From positions 3,735 to 67,734 of the forward strand of contig JAHDNZ010000029.1 of the NCBI GenBank assembly GCA_018435125.1: a stretch of 64,000 nt of DNA, in the 5' to 3' direction. The position numbers were made by a program, and so were the translations under genes. The notes under the pieces were generated by a model. It did not search any database. It was given only the letters and a program-made list of their open reading frames with translations, and was not told the origin of the DNA. This DNA comes from Bacillota bacterium. GTDB lineage: Bacteria > Bacillota > DTU065. This document shows, piece after piece, positions 4,338 to 48,808 of this stretch; position 1 is the stretch's first letter; each line of letters starts with the position of its first letter.

Positions 4338-5696
4338 TTAATCACCTTGATCAACCGAAGCTATGGCTGCCGCCACTTCATTAACTATCTTTCTTACTAG
4401 AACGCTGTCTTTGGCCTCACCCATCACTCTAACCAGAGATTCCGTACCTGAAGGGCGGACAAATAAACGTCCATCTTTACCCAATTCCTCTGTAGCTTTA
4501 CGTATAGCCTGCCTTACTACATCAGATTCCAATATCTTGATTTTGTCTTTAACCCTGACATTGACTAACAGCTGTGGGAAAGTAGGCATCTGAGCTGATA
4601 ATTCGGAAAGAGGCCTACTTTTTCTAACCAGAACTTCTAAAAGTCTTATCGCTGAGATCAAACCATCTCCGGTAGAATTATATTGGAGATAGATTATATG
4701 CCCTGACTGTTCTCCACCCAATATTAGATTATTCTTGCGCATCTCCTGAAGTACATAACGATCGCCGTTATCGGTAACGTGTACAATTCCGCCATGTTTA
4801 TGGATGACATCCCTTAGGCCTAAATTAGAATAGACCGTAACCACAATCCCGTTATTAGGTAGCTCCTCTTTTTCCAACAGATCCAAAGCCACAATTGCCA
4901 TTTGGTGATCGCCATCTACCAGCTCGCCCTTTTCGTCGACAAAGATCACTCTATCAGCATCGCCATCGTGGGCAATACCCAAATGAGCTCCCGATCTCAT
5001 AACTGCTTCTTTTAACTGTTCGGGATGAGTCGAACCACAGCTATGATTGATGTTTTTTCCACTTGGATCGGCATTGATAAGGATTAGCTCTGCACCTAAG
5101 CTTTCTAGTATCTTGGGTGCAATCTCATAAGCTGCTCCATTGGCACAATCTAAAACGATCTTATACCCCGCTAAAGAAAAGGTAGCTGTTTTAATTACAT
5201 AATCACTATATATATCTTTAGCATCCTCGATCTTTAAAAGACGCCCAATCTCTGCTCCGGTTGGACGAGGTAAAATGTCAGGGATAGGATTGCCTTTGTT
5301 ATCTACTATAAAGGCTGCGATTTTATCTTCCTGCTCGTCTGAGAGCTTAAAACCATCTTTATCAAAAAATTTTACCCCATTATCATCAAAAGGATTGTGC
5401 GAAGCAGAAATAACAGCTCCAAGATCGGCTTCTAAAATACGACACATATAAGCTATTGCAGGTGTAGGTAAGATACCTAAGTCATAAGCATCGGCACCAG
5501 AACTAGTTATACCTGCCATAAGTGCAGCCGCTAACATCTCCCCAGATAGTCTGGTATCTCTGCCAACTAGCACCTTACCATGGCCTTCTTTTACTGCTAG
5601 ATGACCTGCTACACGACCTAGCCGCATTACCATCTCTGGAGTCAACTGGCTATTAGCAATACCACGGACTCCATCTGTACCAAAAAACCTAGCCAT
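4338..5696 (-). CDS. glmM: phosphoglucosamine mutase
   Basis: 452 aa. N-terminus MARFFGTDGVRG. Active-site serine loop SASHNP. Confidence 0.95.
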   Translation of the reverse strand: MARFFGTDGVRGIANSQLTPEMVMRLGRVAGHLAVKEGHGKVLVGRDTRLSGEMLAAALMAGITSSGADAYDLGILPTPAIAYMCRILEADLGAVISASHNPFDDNGVKFFDKDGFKLSDEQEDKIAAFIVDNKGNPIPDILPRPTGAEIGRLLKIEDAKDIYSDYVIKTATFSLAGYKIVLDCANGAAYEIAPKILESLGAELILINADPSGKNINHSCGSTHPEQLKEAVMRSGAHLGIAHDGDADRVIFVDEKGELVDGDHQMAIVALDLLEKEELPNNGIVVTVYSNLGLRDVIHKHGGIVHVTDNGDRYVLQEMRKNNLILGGEQSGHIIYLQYNSTGDGLISAIRLLEVLVRKSRPLSELSAQMPTFPQLLVNVRVKDKIKILESDVVRQAIRKATEELGKDGRLFVRPSGTESLVRVMGEAKDSVLVRKIVNEVAAAIASVDQGD

Positions 5697-6619
5697 TAGT
5701 TTTCCCCCTCAACAGCCTTTTTTTTCTCCACCCTTATTTGAACCTTTTCGGGCCAAACCCCAACCCCTGCAGGTGCTTTTAATGCAACCTCTCCTGTATA
5801 AGGTAATTTTTTCAGCTCCACTGGTTCTGTATAGATGGTAGCAATTTTCTTTTTACTTCCAAAGATCAATACTTCCTCTGGAGTAATATTTATCTCCACA
5901 TCATTGTTTTGGTTTATCAAGTCTACTGCCACCTTAACTTTTTCTCCATCTTGTTTTACTACCTGCCAACTAACTTCAGTAAATTGGGGATCAAGCTCTA
6001 GGTTTTCAATTGTTTTACCATCCCTGGTTTTAATTTGAATAGGCAGGTCTTTCTTATACTGCCCTGGTTTTGTGGTAGACATATCTATTAAAATATTGGC
6101 TTTATTAGCTAAGTTAATTATAGATTCAGGTCCGCTTAAGGTTACTTTATTAGGTTCAATTGTTAGGTTTTCAATCATATAGTCTAAAGCTAAACCTCCA
6201 GTATATAAAGGTTCAATCTGTAACTCTTTAGTTACTTTTTTTTCCACTCTAACATCAACTTTATCTGGGTAATATTGAATTATATTAATTCCCTCGGGAG
6301 CCTTTACCGTGACTTTAAGGCTATGTTTTCCCGCACCTTTTCTTTCTAAGCTTGCGTAAACCAAGATATCATCCTGCTTTTGATTAAGATCCCAAAATGA
6401 GCCCGAAGTCTCTATAAAAACTTCCGGAACCTTAGATGTAATCATAGTTCCCTCTTTTAGGTCTGTAAGAATAACAGCCTTCATAATTCTTTGATACTGT
6501 TCTTTCTCACTAATATTAGGAACCTGCATGTTTTGTTGGGCAAAGATCCAGAAGATAATTGCAATGACTAAAGATAAGGCTCTTAAATACAAGTCGCTAT
6601 TATTAATTTTAATCTTCAT
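5696..6619 (-). CDS. cdaR: CdaA regulatory protein CdaR (YbbR-like)
   Basis: YbbR-like repeat protein with an N-terminal TM segment, between cdaA and glmM. Likely start is the internal ATG (MKIKINN), which overlaps the cdaA end. Confidence 0.8.
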   Translation of the reverse strand: MKIKINNSDLYLRALSLVIAIIFWIFAQQNMQVPNISEKEQYQRIMKAVILTDLKEGTMITSKVPEVFIETSGSFWDLNQKQDDILVYASLERKGAGKHSLKVTVKAPEGINIIQYYPDKVDVRVEKKVTKELQIEPLYTGGLALDYMIENLTIEPNKVTLSGPESIINLANKANILIDMSTTKPGQYKKDLPIQIKTRDGKTIENLELDPQFTEVSWQVVKQDGEKVKVAVDLINQNNDVEINITPEEVLIFGSKKKIATIYTEPVELKKLPYTGEVALKAPAGVGVWPEKVQIRVEKKKAVEGEN

Positions 6620-7427
6620 GCTTCTTCCCCTCCCGTCCAAAGGGCCAGAAACGTTCTATAGGTTTTCTGTTCGATAGCAGCCTTTCTTGTAACTGTTTGG
6701 GAGTTAGGTAACGTTGCAGCTTGCCGTCTTCTGCCAAAGAAATACTGCCTGTCTCTTCGGAGACTACCACAATTAAGGCATCTGAAATCTCAGAAAGGCC
6801 AACTGCTGCTCTGTGTCTTGTACCTAATTCTCTGGAAAGATCAAGATTATCTGAAAGGGGCAACAAGCAACCGGCAGCAATGATCCTATCTCCTTCAATA
6901 ATTACAGCACCGTCATGCAAAGCAGAGTTGGGAAAAAAGATCGTTTCTAGCATAGCTGCGTTTACAATGGCATCAATTAGGGTTCCTGTTTCTACATACT
7001 CCATAAGACCACTGTCTTGTTTAAGCACCATTAGGGCCCCTATACCTTGCTCTGAAAATTTTTCTGCTGCTTTAACGATTTCGCCTACCGCCTTTTGTGA
7101 CTGTCCCCGTTCAAATAGATTAAAACGCTCGTCTTTTTGGAAGAAATTGCCTCTTCCAAGTCGCTCTAAAGTTTTTCTCAGTTCGGGGTAAAAAACAATT
7201 GGCAAAGCCACCAGAAAAAGTGTCACCAGTTGCTGAATAAGCCAGTTTACGGTTTTAAAACCCAAAAACTTGCTGAAAATACTAGCTGCAAAAATGATAG
7301 CTACCCCTTTGATAAGCGAAACGGCTCTAGTTCCCTTAATAAATTGCATTGTTTTATAGACTACAGCTGCTACTAATAAAATATCGATGATGTCTAAAAG
7401 CCTAATATTTTGAAAGACGCTTAACAT
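6609..7427 (-). CDS. cdaA: diadenylate cyclase (c-di-AMP synthase)
   Basis: Three N-terminal TM helices plus a DisA_N (DAC) domain. Likely ATG start at 7427 preceded by a GGGAGG RBS. The ORF track extends to a TTG at 7454. Confidence 0.9.
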   Translation of the reverse strand: MLSVFQNIRLLDIIDILLVAAVVYKTMQFIKGTRAVSLIKGVAIIFAASIFSKFLGFKTVNWLIQQLVTLFLVALPIVFYPELRKTLERLGRGNFFQKDERFNLFERGQSQKAVGEIVKAAEKFSEQGIGALMVLKQDSGLMEYVETGTLIDAIVNAAMLETIFFPNSALHDGAVIIEGDRIIAAGCLLPLSDNLDLSRELGTRHRAAVGLSEISDALIVVVSEETGSISLAEDGKLQRYLTPKQLQERLLSNRKPIERFWPFGREGKKHED

Positions 7428-7706
7428 GCTAATACCTCCCGGCAAGCTAAGCAATTCTAGCTAAATCAAGTTTACTTTTTCTCTATCTTATCACTTAGGA
7501 GAGATTAATTAAATATTGTTAAGGAAAAAAGTAACCGGTAAATACCACCACTGTCTAAGAATATCACACACAAGTAGAGCTTTTGCTTCCTGGATAAATA
7601 TGCCAATAGGCTTTTAATTTTTTACCTACAGGGCGCCTTAAGCTTGCTTTTATTATCCTGCTGCTTAAATCCTCCCTTCAAGCTAGCAGGATTACTTATC
7701 AAAGTT

Positions 7707-7748: not shown

Positions 7749-8537
7749 TCAAGTTTTTAATATTTTTCTAATAACAAGTACTGATATAGCTATTATCAAT
7801 AAAACACCTACGCCAATAGCTAAATAAATGATAGCAGGATATTCAAAGGCAAAATTAGTAATATGTCTAATAACAATCCCAAACAGTGCCCAGACAATTA
7901 CTGCAGTGAAAAAAGGCTCTTTTTTGAGATAGAGAGATAAAAACCCAAGTAATCCCGCTACCACAATCATAGTTATGGTCCAATACATTTCACTTAAGCC
8001 AAACCTACCCCAATTTAAATCAACAGCAACTGCTGCGACGTTGGCAATTGTGGCCACACTAATCCAGCCTAGATAGATTTTAAAAGGTACCTGGACAAAC
8101 CAATATTCCCTTTTTGAAAAGTCTTGCCGTTTTTCTAAAACTTTATTTATGCTAATTAGTGAGAGTAAAAGAACTACCATTACAATAAGGGTTGAGGGTA
8201 TAAAAAAGTAATGCCAGAGAATAATCCAGGCGATATTGGCAAGCGAGCTTAATACAAATAGCCAGCCGATATCTGCTACAAGCCCTAACGGTTGTTCTTC
8301 CTTTTTGGTAAAAGCTCCGGCTTGAAAAAGCACAAAAAAGGTTAACCCCAAATAAATGACACCCCAAATAGCAAATGTAAATCCCGCAGGAACAAATAGA
8401 TTAGGATAAAAGGCAGACACTTCGCCGGTTTTAAAACCATTTATGGGTAAAATATTGGCTAAAGCATTGATAGCTACTGTAGCTAGAAACAAAATAACAT
8501 TTAAGATTGAAAGTGACTTTTTTTCAATATTCTCCAT
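7749..8537 (-). CDS. TspO/MBR (tryptophan-rich sensory protein) family membrane protein with C-terminal extension
   Basis: N-terminal 160 aa match the TspO pattern (LPINGFKTGEVSAFYPNLFVPAGFTFAIWGVIY). 262 aa in total with extra predicted TM helices. Confidence 0.7.
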   Translation of the reverse strand: MENIEKKSLSILNVILFLATVAINALANILPINGFKTGEVSAFYPNLFVPAGFTFAIWGVIYLGLTFFVLFQAGAFTKKEEQPLGLVADIGWLFVLSSLANIAWIILWHYFFIPSTLIVMVVLLLSLISINKVLEKRQDFSKREYWFVQVPFKIYLGWISVATIANVAAVAVDLNWGRFGLSEMYWTITMIVVAGLLGFLSLYLKKEPFFTAVIVWALFGIVIRHITNFAFEYPAIIYLAIGVGVLLIIAISVLVIRKILKT

Positions 8538-15100: not shown

Positions 15101-15317
15101 AAAAAGGAGCCCCAATTGGCTCCCTTTCTTAGCAGGTCCCCGCCGTGCCGCTGGGGCTGAATGTTGATGAACCTGCTAAAGCAGGTGGGTGCCCTGTTTA
15201 CAGCTTTCGTAAATCCAATCAGGTCTTGCGGCCACTGCAAAACATCCGGACTCCCTTTCTAAGTGTGTTGGCTCATAACTTAATCAGCTTGACTACGAAC
15301 ACAGCAGGGTTTGTTGT
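15101..15317 (-). ncRNA. ssrS: candidate 6S RNA (ssrS/bsrA-like)
   Basis: GC-rich, structured, non-coding stretch between aspS and tcdA, where bsrA sits in Bacillus subtilis. sigmaA-like promoter TTGAAG-N17-TATTAT at 15324-15352. Intrinsic terminator GGAGCC-CCAATT-GGCTCC plus U5 at 15101-15123. Predicted length about 215 nt. Confidence 0.45.
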
Positions 15318-32916: not shown

Positions 32917-33633
32917 TTAAATATGCCAAAACTCTTTGAGGAGAAACACTAAAGCCATCACAACAATACCAAGAATTGAACCGGCGATAACCTCGGTGAG
33001 GTTATGAATTTTTCCTTGAACTCGGCTTTGAGCCACCAAAAAGGCCAGAAAAAAGCCCAAAAAAGAGATTAGAAGGCTACCGGAATAGAAATAAATGGCA
33101 GTTGCCAAACCAAAAGCAAGAGCTGAATGACCAGATGGCAAGCCCCCTAAAAGGGGGCTTTTGGCCTTGGTAACTCCCTTAAAAAAGAGCACCCCAAAAA
33201 AACTAAGCCCTAAGCCAAGGACAATTAAATCCGCAGGCTGAACAATAAATGCTTCTCGAAAGGGAAGAGATATTTGTATTACTCTTCTCCCAAATAATAA
33301 CCAGCCCACAATAACTGCATTTAACGCTGCCACAAAAACTGCTCCGGCACCGATATCTTTTGCAAGACGGGCCAGAGGATGATACTCGTTGGTAACTAAA
33401 TCTATTGTCTTTTCAATAGCGGTATTAACCAGTTCCAAAGTTAAAACTATAGTAATTGTAACACTTAAAATCATTAGTTCAACCAGGCTTAAATCAAATA
33501 CGAACCCCAAAATCATGGCCAGAACTCCGGCTACAAGGTGAATCTTCATATTTCTTTCGATTTTAACCGCCCTGATTAGGCCGCTAATAGCATTGTTAAA
33601 GCTTTCAAAAAGCGTCTGTTTCCTGCGATCCAC
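32917..33633 (-). CDS. dgkA: fusion protein: DgkA-family prokaryotic lipid kinase N-domain plus PAP2-family lipid phosphatase C-domain
   Basis: N-terminal 120 aa resemble DgkA/undecaprenol kinase. C-terminal half carries PAP2 motifs (PSGHS and SRVQGKIHNLTEVIAG). Confidence 0.65.
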   Translation of the reverse strand: MDRRKQTLFESFNNAISGLIRAVKIERNMKIHLVAGVLAMILGFVFDLSLVELMILSVTITIVLTLELVNTAIEKTIDLVTNEYHPLARLAKDIGAGAVFVAALNAVIVGWLLFGRRVIQISLPFREAFIVQPADLIVLGLGLSFFGVLFFKGVTKAKSPLLGGLPSGHSALAFGLATAIYFYSGSLLISFLGFFLAFLVAQSRVQGKIHNLTEVIAGSILGIVVMALVFLLKEFWHI

Positions 33634-38340: not shown

Positions 38341-38608
38341 GGCCTATCACCTCAAATTGCTTAAGTTCTCCATAGACCTCTAAAGAATCAGGTAGCAGAA
38401 CATTTAACCGCAAATTAGCCCCAGTTAAAATAAGTTTCCCACTTTTTAGCTCTACAACAATACGCTCTTTTTCATATATTAAAAGCCGGTAAGGGTTATA
38501 GATTACTATACGTTTTTGCAGTGGATAATAAGCCACTTTCGGCTCTTTGCCAATTAGCTCAGATGGTAACTCCAGCTTTCTTACCATATTTTGCCAAATA
38601 GTTTGCAA
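38333..38608 (-). CDS. yqfC: sporulation protein YqfC
   Basis: 91 aa YqfC-like protein. TTG start with a GGGGGGA RBS. Confidence 0.7.
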   Translation of the reverse strand: MQTIWQNMVRKLELPSELIGKEPKVAYYPLQKRIVIYNPYRLLIYEKERIVVELKSGKLILTGANLRLNVLLPDSLEVYGELKQFEVIGHV

Positions 38609-38998
38609 GCTAATCCCCCCCTAGATTTTAATCTATTCTTTTGGTTTTAAGCTTAGAAGAAATACCCCACTCCCCCTTACTTATTACTACTAAAAGATAT
38701 GCAGCTTCTTGTGGTAAAGAAGTAGCACTTATTAGTAAACCTGTAAACAAGCTTTATTATCTTTTAGCATACTAAGAATTTATTAGCTTAGATCCCAAAG
38801 CAAACAGCTTATTATCATAAAAGTAAGTGTTCTTATAATACAGACCTGAGCCCAACCATCATTTAGGTTATTTTGATCTACACAAAACTTGAAACACGCT
38901 CATAAATTGGATACAAATTGTAGCCTAAGATGGGTGTGTGTATCATATCTGTTATCTAGTACAGAAATTAGATGCAGCTATCTTTCAGCAATGTCTGC

Positions 38999-39060
38999 AA
39001 AAAAAATCGGTTTCCGGCAGCTTTTCTTGCTGTTGGAAACCGATTAAATTTTGAACTTTT
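38999..39060. terminator. bidirectional intrinsic terminator-like hairpin
   Basis: A8, then AATCGGTTTCC...GGAAACCGATT (11-bp perfect stem with an inner GGCAGC/GCTGTT stem), then a T-rich tail. Confidence 0.6.
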
Positions 39061-39379
39061 TGTGACTCACCATCGAGCTCTAAAGCTGCATGGCCCATTT
39101 CATAAGCTAAACCAATCGCAGGTGACCGCTTCTTCTCATCTATAAATACCACTAGTAGGATCCCATTTAAGTATCATGTACTCGGCTTAATAGTTATATT
39201 TGTAGTGATTTTCTGTCACTCAGACGGAATAAAACTGATAACTAAGCTATTATTCTTTACAAAAATCAGATAAACAAAACCACTAGTATACCCCGCAATC
39301 CATTGGCAAAAAACTTATTTTTAGTAAAATTATATATCGTTACTTACCTATATATTTCAACCCCATATAATAAGCCAGA

Positions 39380-40288
39380 TTACATCAGTTCCACAGCTTT
39401 TCTCTCGCACTCTTTAGCTTCCATTAAAAGTTCTGCAATGACCTTTCTGTTTTTTTCTGCCGCTAAATCGGTGGATTTTTTTATTTCAAAGGCTTTATTC
39501 CAGTTTTCATATACGGTATTATATAGTTTTGCAAGTTCGGATAGGTTGTTCTTTTCAAAGAATTTCCTTGCATACCATTTCAGTGCGGCATAAGTACCAA
39601 GATAATATTCCATATTCCAGCAAGTGGCGTATCGGGTGTCATCCATTTCAAAAAAATGTGTTAGCACAGGATACACATCGAGACCTTTTATATTTTCACA
39701 CCATTCTTCGCCGTTTAAATGCGCTTTGGCCAGCTTTAATGTGTCTGCGATAATATCCTCATTCTTTTTAGCGTTTTTGTCTGTCAGGGTTATTACATTC
39801 AACATAGGCATTTCCCGTTTTCCCAAAAGTGCATAATCCATCTCCTCTGCAGCGCCTGTTATTGAGAGTGTGGAAAATTTCTGCGTCTTATCGTCATAAC
39901 CTGTAAGAAGTCCCCATTCCAAAACCCCGATGTCCCATGCTATAACAGGAATACCGTTGTCAATGCTCTGTGTAATTTTGGGCATAACATCAAGCCGTGC
40001 CTGTTCCATCACATTATCCGGTTGCCAGTAGCAACCGGCATATGTTGTTTCCAACCCGCCGTTTGCAATCCAGGTCGGTTGCCTGTCAAATTGCCATATA
40101 CTCATAGCGCTCGGGCAAAGCTCTGGGTTTACCCACATGCGGAATGCAAAGCCGCTGGTGGCGATAATGTCCTCTGAAAGCTCGCTCCAGGGACTGTTTT
40201 TAACTGCCGCTGACAGTGACTTTGCAAAAGAGAACAGATAGCCGGTTGAATCATAAACGCCATCCCAGGTAATGTTTAATTTATTCAC
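39380..40288 (-). CDS. hypothetical protein, 302 aa, Trp-rich (last gene of the island operon)
   Basis: Real coding density. 12 nt downstream of the helicase stop. No catalytic motif recognised. Possible weak resemblance to BtrH-N/DUF4872-type papain-like folds, but no Cys at the expected position. Confidence 0.6.
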   Translation of the reverse strand: MNKLNITWDGVYDSTGYLFSFAKSLSAAVKNSPWSELSEDIIATSGFAFRMWVNPELCPSAMSIWQFDRQPTWIANGGLETTYAGCYWQPDNVMEQARLDVMPKITQSIDNGIPVIAWDIGVLEWGLLTGYDDKTQKFSTLSITGAAEEMDYALLGKREMPMLNVITLTDKNAKKNEDIIADTLKLAKAHLNGEEWCENIKGLDVYPVLTHFFEMDDTRYATCWNMEYYLGTYAALKWYARKFFEKNNLSELAKLYNTVYENWNKAFEIKKSTDLAAEKNRKVIAELLMEAKECERKAVELM

Positions 40289-40300
40289 TTTGTTCCCTCC

Positions 40301-42469
40301 CTAAAAAATATGACTTAGCCCATTGTAATTGAAGTTAATAGGTTTTACTCCGTTTACAAAACGGATATAATACGTCTTCGTTTTTTCATCAACCGATTCT
40401 ATAACACCCTCGCCGAAAACCTTATGCCGGATTTGGTCGCTCACTTTATAAACCACATCGGTTTTTTTGTTGAATTTTTCAACTTGCAACGTCGCTTCTA
40501 TTTTGATTTCATCAGGCAAATGTCCTATCATCTTCAGCAAGTTCTTGTCAATATCAAAGATAAAACGGGAGGGTACTTTTGAATATCCTTTTACACCAAA
40601 ACCTTCGCTTTCTGTTAGGTACAAGTTTTTCTTAGCCCTTGTTATACCCACAAAACAAAGCCTGCGTTCTTCCTCTAAAGCGTCATTTTTTCTTTCTTCA
40701 AGGCTTCGTGCGGAGGGGAAAATACCTTCTGTCAGTCCCACAAGAAAAACATGGTCAAATTCCAGTCCTTTGGCGGTATGTACCGTCATGATCTTAACAC
40801 AGTCACTTTTATCTTCCCTGTCGCTGTCACGCAAAAGTGTGATATTCTGCAAAAAAGCCGATAAAGATAAAGGCTCGCCATATTCGGTTTCCTGGGTGAC
40901 AATACTTCGCAGCAGTTCTGAGACATTATCAAGCCGCTCAATATCACCGCTTTCACGGATATACATTTCATAGTCTGTGTCCTTAATTACCTTTTGCAAA
41001 AGCTCCGAAACAGAAAGAGTATTTAACTGTTCCTTAAGTTTCTCAATAGCTCCTATGAATTCTTTTGCCTTGCATCCCTTAAACGATTCTAAGTGGTAAC
41101 ATTCTTTTAGTGCATTATAAAGTGAGATGCTGTTGTTCTTAGCATAATTTTTCACAATTTCCAGTTTCATCTTGCCGATTTTGCGTCTTGGGGTGTTAAT
41201 AATCCGCATAAAGGACAAATCGTCCTCGCTATTATCTACCAACCTCATATAGGAAAGCACATCTTTTATTTCGGCCCGCTCGTAAAACCCGATCCCGCCA
41301 TAGACCACATAGGGGATATTATTTATCAAAAAGCCTTGCTCCACAAAGCGGGAAACATAATTAGACCGATAAAGCACCGCAAAATCCGAATATCTGCCGC
41401 CAGTTTCTTTGTTTTTTATAATCTTGTCGCAGATATATTTGATTTCTTCTTTATCGTTTTTACCATGAAAATACTCTGCCGTCTGTCCGCCATCTTTCTG
41501 GGTGAACAAATTCTTTTTAACACGGTTATTGTTCTTGTCAATTAGAGAATTGGCAACATTTAAAATCGGGGAGGTGCTGCGATAATTTTCGTTCATTATC
41601 ATATCTTTGCAAGATGTGTTTAATTTGTTTTTAAAACATGGATCATCTAACCATTTATCAAAATCTACCAGCACACTCATATTTGTACCGCGCCACTCAT
41701 AGATATTTTGATCGGGGTCTCCCACAACAAAAAGATTCCTGTTGATTTCAGTCAGTCTTCGAATCAGTTTGAATTCCTTTGCGGTAATGTCCTGAAACTC
41801 GTCCACCATGATATAGTGAAGTCTTTTTTGCCATTTTGCCAAGATATCGGGAAATTTTCCGAACAAATAAATTGTAAAGTTAATCAGATCAAAAAAGTCC
41901 AGCCCAAAGTATTTACGCTGCTTTTTTACGTATCTGAAAATAATCTCCTCCGACTTTTTATCCGATGTTAAAGTATTGTAATCAAAGGACGGATCCGAAA
42001 GATATTCAACATATGTAATAAGATTTTTATAATAGCGGATTTGGTCTATCATAAATTTAAAGCTAGCAGTATCCATTTTGATGTTCATTTCATCATAGAC
42101 TTCTTCCAAAATATTTTTTTGGTCAATATTATCCAGAACAATGAAGTTTTCAGGGTAAAAAAGCTTTGAAATATCTTCGCGTAGCACGCGAGTGCAGAAA
42201 GCATGGAGTGTCGCCACAAAGGAGGTATCAAATTCTTCTCCCAGCATCGTTTTGATCCGCTTTTTCATCTCGTTTGCAGCCTTGTTTGTGAATGTGATAC
42301 AAAGTATATTAGAAGGTGAAATGCCAAGCTCATTAACCAGATAAGCATAACGATGGGTCAGAGCTTTGGTCTTGCCGACACCAGCTCCCGCTATAACCCT
42401 TACATAGCCTTCGGTCGAGGTAACTGCTTGTGCCTGCGCTTCATTTAGGCCATCTAAAATATCCTGCAT
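40301..42469 (-). CDS. UvrD/PcrA/Rep-family SF1 DNA helicase with C-terminal Tudor-like domain (YjcD-like)
   Basis: Motif I AGAGVGKT, motif II VDEFQD, motif VI VGITRAK. C-terminal HKVFGEGVIESV...YYIRFVNG resembles the PcrA/UvrD C-terminal RNAP-binding Tudor domain. Start taken at MQDILDGLNEAQ (ATG 42469). The 26-codon upstream extension in the ORF track overlaps the AraC gene. Confidence 0.85.
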   Translation of the reverse strand: MQDILDGLNEAQAQAVTSTEGYVRVIAGAGVGKTKALTHRYAYLVNELGISPSNILCITFTNKAANEMKKRIKTMLGEEFDTSFVATLHAFCTRVLREDISKLFYPENFIVLDNIDQKNILEEVYDEMNIKMDTASFKFMIDQIRYYKNLITYVEYLSDPSFDYNTLTSDKKSEEIIFRYVKKQRKYFGLDFFDLINFTIYLFGKFPDILAKWQKRLHYIMVDEFQDITAKEFKLIRRLTEINRNLFVVGDPDQNIYEWRGTNMSVLVDFDKWLDDPCFKNKLNTSCKDMIMNENYRSTSPILNVANSLIDKNNNRVKKNLFTQKDGGQTAEYFHGKNDKEEIKYICDKIIKNKETGGRYSDFAVLYRSNYVSRFVEQGFLINNIPYVVYGGIGFYERAEIKDVLSYMRLVDNSEDDLSFMRIINTPRRKIGKMKLEIVKNYAKNNSISLYNALKECYHLESFKGCKAKEFIGAIEKLKEQLNTLSVSELLQKVIKDTDYEMYIRESGDIERLDNVSELLRSIVTQETEYGEPLSLSAFLQNITLLRDSDREDKSDCVKIMTVHTAKGLEFDHVFLVGLTEGIFPSARSLEERKNDALEEERRLCFVGITRAKKNLYLTESEGFGVKGYSKVPSRFIFDIDKNLLKMIGHLPDEIKIEATLQVEKFNKKTDVVYKVSDQIRHKVFGEGVIESVDEKTKTYYIRFVNGVKPINFNYNGLSHIF

Positions 42470-42473
42470 ATCA

Positions 42474-43310
42474 TTACTTCCTTTTAAGCGGAATATAAAT
42501 ATCCTCTGAAAATATCCTGCTTTCCTCAATATAACATTCGAATTCATAACCGCTCGTACGATTATACTCGCTGTGAGGAAGCCATACCGTATTGATGTAT
42601 TCCCATGTTTTATGAATGTTATTTACAAAATCCCCTTGTGTTGTTATCGGTGTGGCAAACACTGCATACAAACCACCGGGGATCTTCAATTCCTGCGTAC
42701 CGCCGAGATCACCGTCTGCATCTTCCTTTTTTATTCCGATAAAATAGTTTATTTTTTGGTTGACATTGTCCCAAATGCAAACACCGTAATCTCTGACGAC
42801 TTTTCCGCCGGATAGTTTAAGCGACATCTTTTTAGCATTATATTTATTCCAAAATTTCGGCGTATAATCTTCATCACTTTTAAACACAGTTAAATTGAAC
42901 GGTTTGAGGACTATTTTTTTCGGTGTTACTGAAAAAGGGGCGGTTCTAAAGGTGAAACGCTCGTATAGCTTTAAGCTGTTTTCCGCCGATTTGTATTCGG
43001 TAGGTAATATATGATGTTCTGATTTAAAGGCTCTTAGAAAGTTTTCTTTAGAATTAAAGCCATACAGGAAAGCCACTTGCGAAATATACTCATTGCCTTT
43101 GATTATTTCCTTAGCAATTTCTGAAAGCCTGCGTTTTCTTATATAATCGGCAGGAGTAAGACCTGTAAATTCTTTGAATACACGTATAAAGTGATAGAGC
43201 GAATAACCACTGATTTTGGCACAAGCAGCAACATCAATATCATATTCTAAATTTGCTTCTATGTAATCAACCGCTTTTGTAATATGTTCGTTGTAGTCCA
43301 TTTGCATCAC
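42474..43310 (-). CDS. AraC-family transcriptional regulator with C-terminal GyrI-like effector-binding domain
   Basis: N-terminal dual HTH AraC pattern and a GyrI-like C-terminus. Stop is 4 nt before the helicase ATG. Confidence 0.8.
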   Translation of the reverse strand: MMQMDYNEHITKAVDYIEANLEYDIDVAACAKISGYSLYHFIRVFKEFTGLTPADYIRKRRLSEIAKEIIKGNEYISQVAFLYGFNSKENFLRAFKSEHHILPTEYKSAENSLKLYERFTFRTAPFSVTPKKIVLKPFNLTVFKSDEDYTPKFWNKYNAKKMSLKLSGGKVVRDYGVCIWDNVNQKINYFIGIKKEDADGDLGGTQELKIPGGLYAVFATPITTQGDFVNNIHKTWEYINTVWLPHSEYNRTSGYEFECYIEESRIFSEDIYIPLKRK

Positions 43311-43357
43311 CCATTATATCTGATTTATTGAGTTAATAATTGATAAAAATTGCGAAG

Positions 43358-44091
43358 TCATATTTGCCCGAATCCCTTCAGGTACAATATATTTAATATA
43401 ACGCCATTTGCTTTCTGCCAATTTTTGCTGATTGCCCATTCTTTAGGATAACCTTTCCAGCCCCTCGGAATGTTCCATGATCCGTCTTCAAGCTGTGATT
43501 TTACAATATACCCGCACTCTAACTCGGCAATTTCGCTAATTGCGATTAGATTAATTATATCATTAGCGAAGTCACCGCCTAGCAAAGCAGTAACGGCTTT
43601 TTTTGCTATACAGCAACCGAGTTTATAAAGCTTGCTGTATTTTAAGCAAGCGGATGATAAATCCTGTGAGGCAGACGATTGGGTTGTAGTCATTGTAACA
43701 GGTGCTATCGCTTTCGGTGTGCCACCAAGGAGCATGAGGATAATCGTTGTTGCTGTAAAAGGTGTTATACCAGAAATGTCCGTTAAAATCCTGTCCGCTT
43801 GCCAGATAACACAAAACTCCCTTAATAATGGTGTGGGAGTTGTCGGTAAAGTTAATTTCCCGCAGAAATTCGGCTGCTGCCCACGTCTTAAATAGGTGAT
43901 GAGTTTGGATTCCACGTATCCGGCTCCAGCGCATGACCGAAGCCAACATCCTCGTTTTGATAGGCGCCAAGCGTAGTTAATACAGCCTCTTTGCTGCCGT
44001 TTTCAAAGTGATACTACCAACGTGCCAAATCCAGCAGTCGTGCGTTGCGATAGATAAAGGTATAGGCTTTTTCAAAAGCAAAGCTACTCAT
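43358..44091 (-). pseudogene. decayed gene for a prenyltransferase/terpene-cyclase-repeat (alpha/alpha-toroid) protein
   Basis: Three overlapping frames (ORFs 43358-43915 and 43623-43970, plus an ATG at 44091 with an in-frame TAG at 44014-44016). Repeat signatures [17 protein letters not shown] and SQLEDGSWNIPRGW. Confidence 0.6.
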
Positions 44092-44693
44092 TGCACTATA
44101 ACCTCTTAAACTTGCATTTTACTTTTGCAGGCAAGTTTACCCTTGTATTCGTCCGTATGGCCGATGATTATGCCTCTGCAATACCAAAACCAACCGCGCT
44201 CTCCAATCACCATCGTTGGTAGATCCTGCATTTGCTACAACATACTTGTGACCCTATCAATTGTCCTTAAGAACACTCTCACATTTAAGTTTAAGGGTTA
44301 CCCCTTTTAATACTTCTGACAACTTTGGAGGGTCAGATCACATTTATATAAAGTACCTCATTTGGAGTTAATGTTCAGCACTGAGCACTTTACCAGCTCT
44401 TATCTTTGGCAATGTCTCGAGATACCATGAATCCAACTCATTTACTCTAGATCCTGTTAAATCTCTCATTCAAACAATAATCCGATTATATTCATTACTA
44501 AGGAACATAAAATAGAATACAAAACCTTGAACCGACCTTCTTTTTATGAGTAAAGTCTTTTGGCTTGCAGAGCACTTCATTTTATTAGTTGTAAGTTAGT
44601 GATATCTTTTACTTTCCCTCCTTAACAGTTATAATTGCTTTCTTATAATAATCTTACCATTGTAAACTTTGAGCTCTTTTTTAACCTTTGAAA

Positions 44694-44745
44694 TGTAAAA
44701 GGCCGTGGGAAACCGAAATCTCCTACGGCCAATTGTTATTTATAA
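44694..44745 (-). terminator. terminator after yqfB-like gene
   Basis: GGCCGTgggaaaccgaaatctcctACGGCC hairpin with U-rich flanks. Confidence 0.55.
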
Positions 44746-46297: not shown

Positions 46298-47587
46298 CTA
46301 TTCGCTTTCCTCAACGACAATACGATTGCCCTTAACCTCAATGACTTTAATATTGACATCTCGCCCCAAAAACTCTCCTGCAGTCTGGGCACTGTAGCGT
46401 TTGCCTTCAACTTCAATAAGACCCGAAGGACGCATTACGGTTGCGGTAACACCATTTTTGCCTTCTAAATCTTTTAATTTATCCTCAGCTACACTAAATC
46501 CTTTGCTTTCTTCCAAACTGGTCTCTAAAACCAGCTTTTTAAAAAGAGGCGCTTTTTTTAGTCGCTTCCAGAATATTTTCAAAAACAAAGCGGTTAAAGC
46601 TATAGCTGCAATTAAAACCCAAACTGCCTGGGTTAGGTTTTTGAAACTTAAAATAATACTGGTTAAAAGACCTGCTATACCTAAAAGACCAACAATGCCA
46701 AACCCGGGAATAACAAAGATCTCCAGACCTAAAAAGATTAGCCCTGCTAAAAACAGTACAATATGCTCAAGCCCGGCAAGGCCACTGAGGTACCTCCCGC
46801 CGAAAAATAAAGTCAAACTCACGATACCGACTGTACCGGCAGCACCCCAACCCAGGGTAAAAAACTCCAAGATGATACCTAAAAATCCAATGGTTAAAAG
46901 TAAGGAACTGACAATCGGATCGGTTAAAAAGCGAGCAAACTTCTCTGCTCCGGATGGCTCTTGATCTATAATATCCTCATGGGCAACCTCTTTTAGCTCT
47001 AGCAGTTCAGGCAGCGTATTGATTGTACCATCCGAGATTTTTAATTCTAGGGCCTCTATGGCCGTTAAATTAAGGATCTTGCCTTTTTCATTAATTCCCG
47101 GAATCTCAACATCACTGTCTACCATAGCCTCTGCTATTCTGCCATCTTTCCCTCGTGATTCGGCAGTGGCCTTAAACTCTCTTCTAACCGCAGATATTAT
47201 TTTTTCTTCTTTGGGTCTTGTCTCGGCCGAACCGATACTACTGCCGCTTACCATATAAAGTTCTTCGCCTGAAAGAGCTATCAAAGCCCCTGCTGACCAG
47301 GCCCTACCGGTAACATAGGTCACGTTTGGAACCCTAGCTTGCATAATAGTATCTTTAATCTCGAGTGCGGCATCAACCAAACCGCCCAGAGTATCGATCT
47401 CTATTACGACTAAATCCGCCCGGTTTCTTTCGGCATTTCTCATAGCTCTTTTTACAAATCCCGCTACACCATAATCGATGGTTCCTTTAATTGGAATTAG
47501 GTAAACATCTGCTGAAGCTGAAAAAACACTGGCCAGACACAACAGCAAAATAAAAATTAATAGCGGTTTTGTCTTAACTTTCACCAT
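46298..47587 (-). CDS. nfeD: NfeD-family membrane protease (YqeZ-like)
   Basis: ClpP-class protease domain, TM bundle and a C-terminal OB fold. ATG overlaps the anti-sigma stop (ATGGTGA). Confidence 0.85.
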
Positions 47588-48156
47588 TTTTCACCTCCTA
47601 TGATTAAACTCCAAATGGCCTGAAAAAAGTTACCTAGACGTTGCCAAATACTTCTTTTGTTGATCATAGCTGATACTTGACCATCTATAGAGGTTACATT
47701 GCCTTTGATCTCCCCTTGTACATAGACATCCCCACCTACAACTGTTAAGTTGCCGGGAAGACTCTCACCGTCGACAATGATATTCTTGCCTCTGGAATGG
47801 ATGGCTACATCATCTCCAATTCTTTCACAGGGTATACTTCTAGGTACAATATAAGCAATCGTTAACATTAACATTATAGCTGCAGCCAAAGAGTAGTATT
47901 TACGCAGACGCTTTTTCCTCCATTTGGAGTCTTTGGCGATCTCTTTTTTGATCCTAAGCTTTAATAAATCTGTCGGTTCCACTACTAGATTTTCCATATT
48001 TTCGGTAATAAAAAACAGTTCTTCTGCTTCTTTATTACATTTTGGGCAGGAGATTAAATGAGCTTTGATCTCTCTGTATTCTAGCGGTGGCAAAAGACCA
48101 TCAATGTAATCGTCAAGTTTTGAGCGTACATGCTCACACTCACTCACCAAATTCAC
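47581..48156 (-). CDS. anti-sigma factor (RsiW-like, zinc-binding N-domain)
   Basis: Zinc-binding HLISCPKC motif. Single TM helix. Beta-rich extracytoplasmic C-domain. Confidence 0.75.
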   Translation of the reverse strand: MNLVSECEHVRSKLDDYIDGLLPPLEYREIKAHLISCPKCNKEAEELFFITENMENLVVEPTDLLKLRIKKEIAKDSKWRKKRLRKYYSLAAAIMLMLTIAYIVPRSIPCERIGDDVAIHSRGKNIIVDGESLPGNLTVVGGDVYVQGEIKGNVTSIDGQVSAMINKRSIWQRLGNFFQAIWSLIIGGEKW

Positions 48157-48703
48157 CTTCTTTTTTATTGAAAAGGTAATCTTTCAATAACCACCTCGCT
48201 CGATGTAGCTTGGTTTTAATTGTCCCTAGTGGCTCTTCAAGCACGGTTGCTATCTCTTCGTATTTTAATCCTTCAAGATAACGCAAGAGTATTACCAGCC
48301 GGTATTTGGCCGGTAATACTGTAAGGGCTTGGGTTAACTCTCGGCTCGTTTCCTTATCTAGAAGCGCTTCTTGAGGATCGGCAAAGACATTTTGCGTTAA
48401 TAAAGACAGTTCCGTATCTGAATCGGAAAAAGCAACTTTCTTACTCTTACGTATGTTATCAATACACAAATTGCTAGCAATTTTTAATATCCAATTACCA
48501 AACGGATATGCAGGATTGTATTTATCAAGAGAACGATAAGCTCTTAAAAAAGTATCCTGAGTCAGATCCTCAGCTAACATAGGATCTCTTAACATCCTCA
48601 AAATTAAGCTATAGACCTTAGTTGAATACCTTAGCACAATATCATCGAAGGAATTTTTATTGCCCTTTAGTGTCATTTTAACCAGTTCCTGATCACTAAA
48701 CAT
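48140..48703 (-). CDS. ECF RNA polymerase sigma factor (sigmaW-like)
   Basis: Sigma-70 regions 2 and 4. Preceded by a TGAAAC-N16-CGTA promoter. Confidence 0.85.
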   Translation of the reverse strand: MFSDQELVKMTLKGNKNSFDDIVLRYSTKVYSLILRMLRDPMLAEDLTQDTFLRAYRSLDKYNPAYPFGNWILKIASNLCIDNIRKSKKVAFSDSDTELSLLTQNVFADPQEALLDKETSRELTQALTVLPAKYRLVILLRYLEGLKYEEIATVLEEPLGTIKTKLHRARWLLKDYLFNKKEGEFGE

Positions 48704-48728
48704 TGCCTTACCATCCTCTACTATGTTC

Positions 48729-48754
48729 TACGTTTTGCTAAATAAAAAGTTTCA
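48729..48754 (-). promoter_or_regulatory. sigmaW-type ECF promoter TGAAAC-N16-CGTA (autoregulatory)
   Basis: Exact TGAAAC at 48754-48749, a 16-nt spacer, then CGTA at 48732-48729. About 25 nt upstream of the sigma-factor start. Confidence 0.7.
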
Positions 48755-48770: not shown

Positions 48771-48808
48771 TGATAAAAAAGGGGTGCCCAAATGGACAAC
48801 CCCCCAAT
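48771..48808 (-). terminator. terminator after rpsU
   Basis: G-run/C-run hairpin followed by U6. Confidence 0.65.

Follow-up and report, generated by a model that had tools for sequence, protein, structure and literature searches.

A 64,000-nt stretch of a Bacillota genome of the DTU065 lineage (contig JAHDNZ010000029.1 of assembly GCA_018435125.1, positions 3,735–67,734; hereafter the window) raises the question of whether a stress-responsive sigma factor and the membrane genes that it controls can share a single operon. In Bacillus subtilis, yqeZ (nfeD), yqfA (floA) and yqfB form a core operon of the SigW regulon with a role in sublancin resistance (PMC3498285), in agreement with the original prediction for this locus. 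In the window, a gene pair encoding an extracytoplasmic function (ECF) sigma factor and an anti-sigma factor stands directly in front of nfeD. Our analysis indicates that the pair and the three genes behind it probably constitute a terminator-bounded five-gene operon with one SigW-type ECF promoter, and it assigns the pair to the SigW/RsiW family, in a conserved genomic context unlike that of Bacillus.

All relevant genes are encoded on the minus strand and follow each other, in the direction of transcription, as rpsU, terminator, promoter, sigma gene, anti-sigma gene, nfeD, floA, yqfB-like gene and terminator (Table 1). rpsU and the sigma gene are 107 nt apart, and the promoter lies in this gap, on the coding strand. 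Between its CGTA element and the sigma ATG (48703) are 25 nt, which include a GAGG Shine–Dalgarno sequence, and a T-tract directly follows the −35 element on its 3′ side. The exact TGAAAC-N16-CGTA match put forward by the original prediction proved to be the sole occurrence in the window, where 0.07 matches are expected by chance and 6 of 100 shuffled sequences contained at least one; the relaxed patterns GAAAC-N16-CGTA and TGAAAC-N17-CGTA yielded no extra sites over the same 64 kb. Across eight aligned orthologous loci, GAAAC and CGTA are invariant and their spacing is fixed, while the spacer and flanks vary, and more distant loci carry N17 variants at the same place. The CGTA form of the −10 element is SigW-selective in B. 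subtilis, and the AAC/CGT core is shared by many ECF promoters (PMC5758882). This site is the presumed autoregulatory promoter of all five genes, which the sigma factor encoded here would itself use.

Predicted intrinsic terminators bound the operon on both sides. The stem of the rpsU terminator shows compensatory changes in an alignment of the upstream regions of relatives, and this terminator is predicted to insulate the operon from upstream transcription. At the distal end, a 71-nt stretch folds with −22 kcal/mol (z = −3.8), a value that none of 200 shuffled sequences equalled. The junctions in between are tight. Stop and start codons overlap between the sigma and anti-sigma genes and again between the anti-sigma gene and nfeD, there as ATGGTGA (with GGAGGTGA immediately 5′), and gaps of 11 nt and 9 nt separate nfeD from floA and floA from the yqfB-like gene. 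According to the original prediction, a terminator or promoter that separates nfeD from the anti-sigma gene would speak against it. None was found: folding of this junction gave no terminator-like or significant structure (z = −0.77), and the coding strand of the sigma and anti-sigma genes (48703–47581) contains no terminator-like site and no sigma-70-like promoter in a consensus scan.

Domain searches bore out the identities of the genes. The description of the pair as translationally fused to nfeD holds in the sense of translational coupling through overlapping stop and start codons; no fused protein is encoded. The proposal of a single autoregulated operon agrees with the flanking terminators, the lack of an internal one, the tight junctions and the conservation of the promoter in relatives, and we infer that sigma, anti-sigma, nfeD, floA and yqfB are co-transcribed. 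A hairpin at the sigma/anti-sigma junction (48120–48190, minus strand, z = −3.5), in which the GAAGGUG Shine–Dalgarno sequence of the anti-sigma gene would pair with the upstream UUACCUUUU and so be hidden, was also considered and dropped as non-conserved: beyond the window it is present in the closest relative alone, and loci L004, L007 and L090 do not keep it. The two genes do not stand out in base composition, so their recent horizontal transfer is unlikely.

Table 1 Features of the operon and its surroundings in the window, and SigW-type motifs at floA loci of Bacilli.
Feature	Coordinates	Strand	Basis or remark
rpsU	48990-48811	minus	first gene upstream of promoter region
rpsU intrinsic terminator	48775..48805	minus	GGGGGG...CCCC hairpin then UUUUUU; -16.5 kcal/mol, z = -2.3
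SigW-type ECF promoter, TGAAAC (48754-48749)-N16-CGTA (48732-48729)	48729..48754	minus	motif match
ECF sigma factor, SigW-like, 187 aa	48140..48703	minus	Pfam Sigma70_r2 and r4_2
RsiW-family anti-sigma factor, 191 aa	47581..48156	minus	zf-HC2, E = 2e-10
NfeD1b membrane protease (predicted), 429 aa	46298..47587	minus	Pfam NfeD1b_N, NfeD_membrane and NfeD, all above cut-offs
FloA, flotillin-like (SPFH5), 328 aa	45300..46286	minus	Pfam FloA, 519 bits
YqfB-like small membrane protein, 165 aa	44793..45290	minus	position directly after floA and C-terminal motif
Operon-end intrinsic terminator	44697..44730	minus	GC-rich hairpin, GGCCGU.GGAGAU-UUCG-GUUUCC.ACGGCC then UUUU
185-aa open reading frame	43358-43915		no family given; in 6-kb segment
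AraC + GyrI-like regulator	42474-43310		in 6-kb segment
UvrD-type helicase, 748 aa	40301-42547		in 6-kb segment
302-aa open reading frame	39380-40288		no family given; in 6-kb segment
Bacilli motifs, 36-98 nt upstream of nfeD	L036:5273, L067:5222, L076:4575, L083:5278, L064:4513		L079:1544 lies upstream of floA

The sigma factor matches SigW best, both among family models and among proteins of solved structure. SigW models rank as the top two in NCBIfam (PRK09641, 148.9 bits; TIGR02948, 129.3 bits), followed by the next family at 122 bits, and the best solved structure is that of B. subtilis SigW (5wuq, E = 4e-33, 118 bits vs 97). In the crystallographically defined list of −35-contacting residues of the SigW sigma-4 domain, T168, K170, T171, R172, H174 and R175 (PMC6713349), all are identical here apart from R172, which is a lysine; these residues are similar in other ECF sigma factors too and are weak evidence for SigW identity. 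SigW falls into ECF01 and SigV into ECF30 of the original classification (PMC5758882). Identity to SigW orthologues defined by their sigW–rsiW–cdaA context is 34–39%, and the deep nodes of a sigma tree that includes outside ECFs have bootstrap values below 25%. Taken by itself, the sigma sequence appears closest to SigW, not cleanly so.

Outside its own clade, the closest matches to the sigma factor come from modules in which a sigma gene, a gene for an anti-sigma factor of ~180 aa and a gene for a DUF8173 protein occur in conserved order (L117:3501-6056; L118:3501-5590). Some members of these clusters are named as Chloroflexia or Chthonomonadales metagenome-assembled genomes.

The anti-sigma factor is the more informative partner. 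In this protein, a single transmembrane helix connects a cytoplasmic zinc-binding domain to a short extracytoplasmic beta-helix, and an amphipathic helix forms the C terminus; the likelier start is GTG 48147, 9 nt after GAAGGTG. H33, C37 and C40 of the H-x3-C-x2-C zinc motif are invariant among relatives. An AlphaFold model of low confidence (mean predicted local distance difference test score 67, predicted template modelling score 0.28) places a helix at residues 62–107 and six short strands at 117–164. A profile built from the window protein and five close relatives was searched against 1.8 billion representatives and matched proteins of ~200 aa from end to end. One of these carries the UniRef name ‘Anti-sigma-W factor RsiW’ (Alkalihalophilus), and P0249, P0269 and P0404 (a cluster mate of set member P0262) are encoded in sigma–antisigma–cdaA–ybbR–glmM loci. 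In hhalign, the anti-sigma factor aligned with the RsiW-like set at 99.7% probability (E = 1.7e-26, 160 columns) and with the RsiW-like P0280, itself without a name, at 98.4% probability over 176 columns that include the C-terminal amphipathic helix. Plain phmmer gave no match between the anti-sigma factor and the solved RsiW cytoplasmic fragment, and identity to cdaA-linked anti-sigma factors is 19–28%. The anti-sigma factors of the DUF8173 modules match at the zinc motif alone or nowhere, and are not RsiW-like. Because the window protein is a full-length RsiW homologue and these are not, the anti-sigma factor settles the identity of the pair better than the sigma factor does. Together, the RsiW-type partner, the CGTA −10 element and the nature of the target genes place the pair in the SigW/RsiW family, on a divergent branch.

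Within the anti-sigma factor, the ectodomain core V.IHS.G...L.G.LTVVGGDVYV.GE..G..TS..GQVSA is invariant in six aligned sequences of group A (defined below) and is more conserved than the sigma-binding domain. Such conservation is compatible with a surface constrained by sensing or by protease recognition. GQVSA, itself invariant, stands at the place of (Y/F)xAS(S/T)A in RsiW relatives; as the alignment is gapped there, its equivalence to the PrsW cleavage site is uncertain.

The remaining three genes encode the products expected of a yqeZ–yqfA–yqfB operon. In NfeD, a signal peptide and a ClpP-like domain are followed by five predicted transmembrane helices and, at the C terminus, an OB-fold domain. 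It matches Pyrococcus PH1510 in the PDB, with S98 and K129 aligned to the catalytic dyad S97/K138 and conserved in all of 33 NfeD1b sequences. The signal peptide, the five hydrophobic segments and the KRLKK that follows the last of them suggest that the protease domain lies outside the cell and the OB-fold inside. The identity of FloA is unambiguous, with a score of 531.9 bits against an NCBIfam equivalog cut-off of 393. The 165-aa product of the last gene combines a transmembrane helix at its N terminus with a disordered central part and the sequence AMIAKEILDKPRALAPW at its C terminus. This combination, with the C-terminal motif [AG][IV][IVM]x[AS]E[IV]Lxx-P[RK]A, is common to 48 of 76 post-floA genes of other Bacillota, Bacilli included, among the matches listed. 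The protein had no match in the Pfam copy searched, which was without the YqfB model PF27722, and orthologues in L004–L006 have a weak precomputed match to that model; owing to its position and C-terminal motif we accept it as YqfB-like. In Staphylococcus aureus, FloA–NfeD reportedly has a stabilising effect on unfolded membrane-associated proteins during stress (PMC11222466). Given this role and the sublancin resistance conferred by the B. subtilis operon, an envelope-stress output of the operon is plausible by analogy.

The place at which Bacilli carry sigW–rsiW is otherwise occupied in the window. The genes cdaA (6609–7454), a ybbR-domain gene and glmM were confirmed at 4338–7454, ~40 kb from the pair (47581–48703). 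Upstream of cdaA, where Bacilli have sigW–rsiW, lies an open reading frame (ORF) of 262 aa (7749–8537, minus strand) without a sigma domain and without a Pfam or PADLOC family. A phmmer scan of all ORFs of the window found a single ECF sigma factor and none at cdaA, in line with the claim that cdaA–cdaR–glmM has no sigma gene upstream. In B. subtilis, sigW–rsiW ends at its own terminator, followed by cdaA–cdaR–glmM–glmS (PMC6171935), unlike the arrangement here, in which the anti-sigma stop overlaps nfeD. At several cdaA-linked loci of other genomes (L105:3888-3914, L094:3731, L095:2087 and L106–L108), TGAAAC-N16/17-CGTA follows the sigma stop and precedes the anti-sigma start; in that position it would place the anti-sigma gene, and perhaps cdaA, under SigW control, and not the sigma gene. 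At two others (L096 and L110), the motif is upstream of the sigma gene.

The layout of the window recurs in other genomes. Relatives found through the sigma factor (65–91% identical) all share the order dnaK–dnaJ–prmA–rsmE–mtaB–HIT–rpsU, then sigma–antisigma–nfeD–floA–yqfB, then yqfC–yqfD–phoH–pgpH. With eight loci found through the anti-sigma factor (L090–L093 and L097–L100; anti-sigma 43–59% identical, some with TGAAAC-N17-CGTA), L001–L008 make up group A, in which rpsU is followed by promoter, sigma, antisigma, nfeD and floA (or floA–yqfB), and in which anti-sigma identity to the window protein spans 43–91%. Group B (L089 and L101–L104; GC content 0.50–0.59) has the same layout with anti-sigma factors that are 25–27% identical, a TGAAAC-N17-CGTA or -CGTT promoter, and an unstructured gap of 30–58 nt before nfeD instead of the overlap. 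L089 lies outside the clade of the window host, judged by NfeD similarity. Three group B loci (L102:4628-4652, L103 and L104) carry a second ECF-like motif, TGAAAC-N15-CGTC, over the nfeD start codon; it is probably fortuitous, being too near the ATG to serve nfeD.

Neighbour-joining trees of these short proteins, unrooted, resolve three well-supported groups for sigma, anti-sigma and the two concatenated: group A, group B and the cdaA-linked pairs, which are monophyletic. Bootstrap values for the separation of nfeD-linked from cdaA-linked pairs are 97% (sigma), 85% (anti-sigma) and 99.5% (concatenated), and of the three deep branches in the tree of the pair, two are nfeD-linked. These comparisons distinguish two types of genomic context for RsiW-family pairs, one linked to nfeD and the other to cdaA.

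For comparison, we surveyed 80 diverse Bacillota loci anchored on FloA (9 from Bacilli and 71 from others, among the matches listed). Many have the order mtaB–HIT–rpsU–nfeD–floA, and none of the 80 has an ECF sigma gene within 6 kb. A SigW-type motif, [TC]GAAAC-N16-CGTA, directly upstream of nfeD was present at six of the nine Bacilli loci and at none of the 71 others; the three Bacilli loci in which it was not found are two from Staphylococcaceae and one from Kroppenstedtia.

Several observations weigh against the reading of the locus as a SigW/RsiW-driven five-gene operon. The sigma factor scores below the SigW equivalog cut-offs (148.9 vs 209 bits for PRK09641, 129.3 vs 243.1 for TIGR02948), and it is 41–47% identical to the ECFs of the unrelated sigma–ZAS–DUF8173 module (ZAS, zinc-associated anti-sigma factor), that is, no less than to context-defined SigW. 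GQVSA matches the RsiW cleavage site Ala168|Ser169 just loosely, and a consensus scan can miss weak or non-canonical promoters, so that a weak internal nfeD–floA promoter might exist. The original prediction had also named clustering of the sigma factor with a non-SigW ECF group as counter-evidence. The SigW-like identity is upheld in this respect by the best NCBIfam and structure matches and by the RsiW partner, but it is qualified by the missed cut-offs, the modest identity and the unsupported deep nodes of the sigma tree. These same qualifications, the DUF8173-linked module as the source of the closest outside matches, and the wide occurrence of AAC/CGT in ECF promoters (PMC5758882) could mean that the pair represents a different ECF group and just happens to neighbour nfeD–floA, with a generic AAC...CGT promoter and independent expression of nfeD–floA–yqfB. 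We hold this to be quite improbable: the anti-sigma factor is homologous to RsiW over its full length, which the DUF8173-linked ones are not, the −10 element is the SigW-selective CGTA, and stop and start codons overlap with no terminator between the pair and nfeD. Moreover, the adjacency is kept where anti-sigma factors are just 25% identical, and its absence from the 80 other floA loci among the matches listed argues that it is not a chance neighbourhood.

Two other readings accept the pair and differ in what it does to the genes behind it. If a leaky or missing terminator were offset by a housekeeping promoter that escaped recognition in the anti-sigma gene, the pair would drive itself alone, nfeD–floA would be constitutive and SigW-type control would add a modest boost. 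A general need for flotillin without stress fits this idea, as does the ease with which weak or non-canonical promoters escape consensus scans, but no sigma-70-like site was found on the coding strand of the pair, and the homologous B. subtilis operon depends on basal SigW activity (PMC3498285, PMC5758882); we regard it as very improbable. Alternatively, the operon may be a self-contained sensing module, in which the ClpP-like protease NfeD, perhaps organised by FloA, cleaves or trims the anti-sigma ectodomain, so that the downstream genes are both pathway and positive feedback. The anti-sigma gene and nfeD are translationally coupled, the Ser–Lys dyad of NfeD is conserved, its signal peptide and five predicted helices put the protease domain in the compartment of the anti-sigma sensor domain, and the ectodomain core LTVVGGDVYV...TS..GQVSA is conserved above the level of the sigma-binding domain. 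This case consists, however, of adjacency and a shared compartment, and the adjacency is fully explained by nfeD as a regulated target. In B. subtilis the site-1 cut is made by PrsW (PMC8767453) and nfeD is an unlinked member of the regulon, and group B loci have a gap of 30–58 nt, and no overlap, between the anti-sigma gene and nfeD. A sensing role for NfeD is improbable on this balance.

Under the preferred reading, a five-gene operon controlled by its own SigW-type sigma factor, the locus would work along the lines of the B. subtilis SigW/RsiW paradigm (PMC5358783, PMC8767453). There, RsiW is a ZAS anti-sigma factor, and the pair is activated by PrsW, which makes the site-1 cut of RsiW (PMC8767453), then by RasP and then by ClpXP. 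We infer the proteolytic route and the stress signal of the window pair from this system. At rest, the RsiW-like anti-sigma factor would use its zinc-binding cytoplasmic domain to keep the sigma factor bound at the membrane. Envelope or membrane stress would trigger stepwise proteolysis of the anti-sigma factor, with a cut in the ectodomain, an intramembrane cut and degradation in the cytoplasm. The released sigma factor would then direct RNA polymerase to its own promoter. A single transcript would raise the levels of the sigma factor, the anti-sigma factor (resetting the system), the NfeD protease, the FloA scaffold and YqfB, the last three of which would have roles in organising the membrane and in protein quality control.

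Elsewhere in the window, a segment of ~6 kb (38600–44700) separates the yqfB terminator from yqfC/yqfD and is absent from relatives L001–L006. PADLOC gave generic UvrD/GajB/RTasHel-like matches for its genes (Table 1) and no recognised defence system; the segment may be an inserted island. A 6S RNA (15133–15313, minus strand; Rfam RF00013, 71 bits) is the sole Rfam family at gathering score in the window. A 238-aa ORF (32917–33633, minus strand) joins a DAGK_prokar domain and a C-terminal PAP2 phosphatase domain in one protein.

Compared with known systems, the locus combines familiar parts. With B. subtilis sigW–rsiW it shares an ECF sigma factor with the same −35 contacts and an autoregulatory TGAAAC-N16-CGTA promoter. 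Its anti-sigma factor resembles RsiW over the full length (zinc motif, single transmembrane helix, beta-helix ectodomain and amphipathic helix), with an ectodomain that, unlike that of RsiW, is ~10 residues shorter around the PrsW site. The three genes that follow have the same order and promoter type as yqeZ–yqfA–yqfB, and the neighbourhood is also the same, with dnaK–dnaJ–prmA–rsmE–mtaB–...–rpsU upstream and yqfC–yqfD–phoH–pgpH downstream. In Bacilli, the SigW promoter stands directly before nfeD and the regulator is encoded elsewhere, whereas here the regulator pair is inserted in the order between promoter and nfeD. ECF modules such as B. subtilis sigV–rsiV–oatA–yrhK likewise place a regulator pair and effectors on one autoregulated transcript, but with effectors other than the flotillin/NfeD membrane-microdomain module of the window. 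We found no paper on an anti-sigma/NfeD/flotillin operon in the literature searched; the ECF reclassification paper names neither flotillin nor NfeD in its main text, and its supplement may list the context. All components belong to known families, and autoregulated ECF logic is common. What is new is the operon architecture, and the wiring differs from that of the model organism.

This architecture bears on the history of the SigW regulon. At least two uncultured lineages of Bacillota, deeply divergent from each other, have the pair joined to nfeD–floA–yqfB, and Bacilli have a SigW promoter before the same genes, which suggests that the link between SigW and flotillin is old and that the flotillin module is possibly a primary SigW output. 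One could go further and take the nfeD-linked layout as ancestral, with the flotillin module as the original core target and the regulator moved to cdaA in Bacilli, leaving the promoter behind; in its bolder form, NfeD would also cut the ectodomain, closing a loop of sensor, protease and scaffold. We consider this extension rather doubtful. SigW controls some 60–90 genes in B. subtilis, and the arrangement described here bears on which of these targets form its core function. It also illustrates that an ECF pair can be classified through its anti-sigma partner where the sigma sequence alone fails. With one promoter and five genes, the operon would offer a natural minimal system for studying how the sensing of membrane stress is tied to membrane microdomains.

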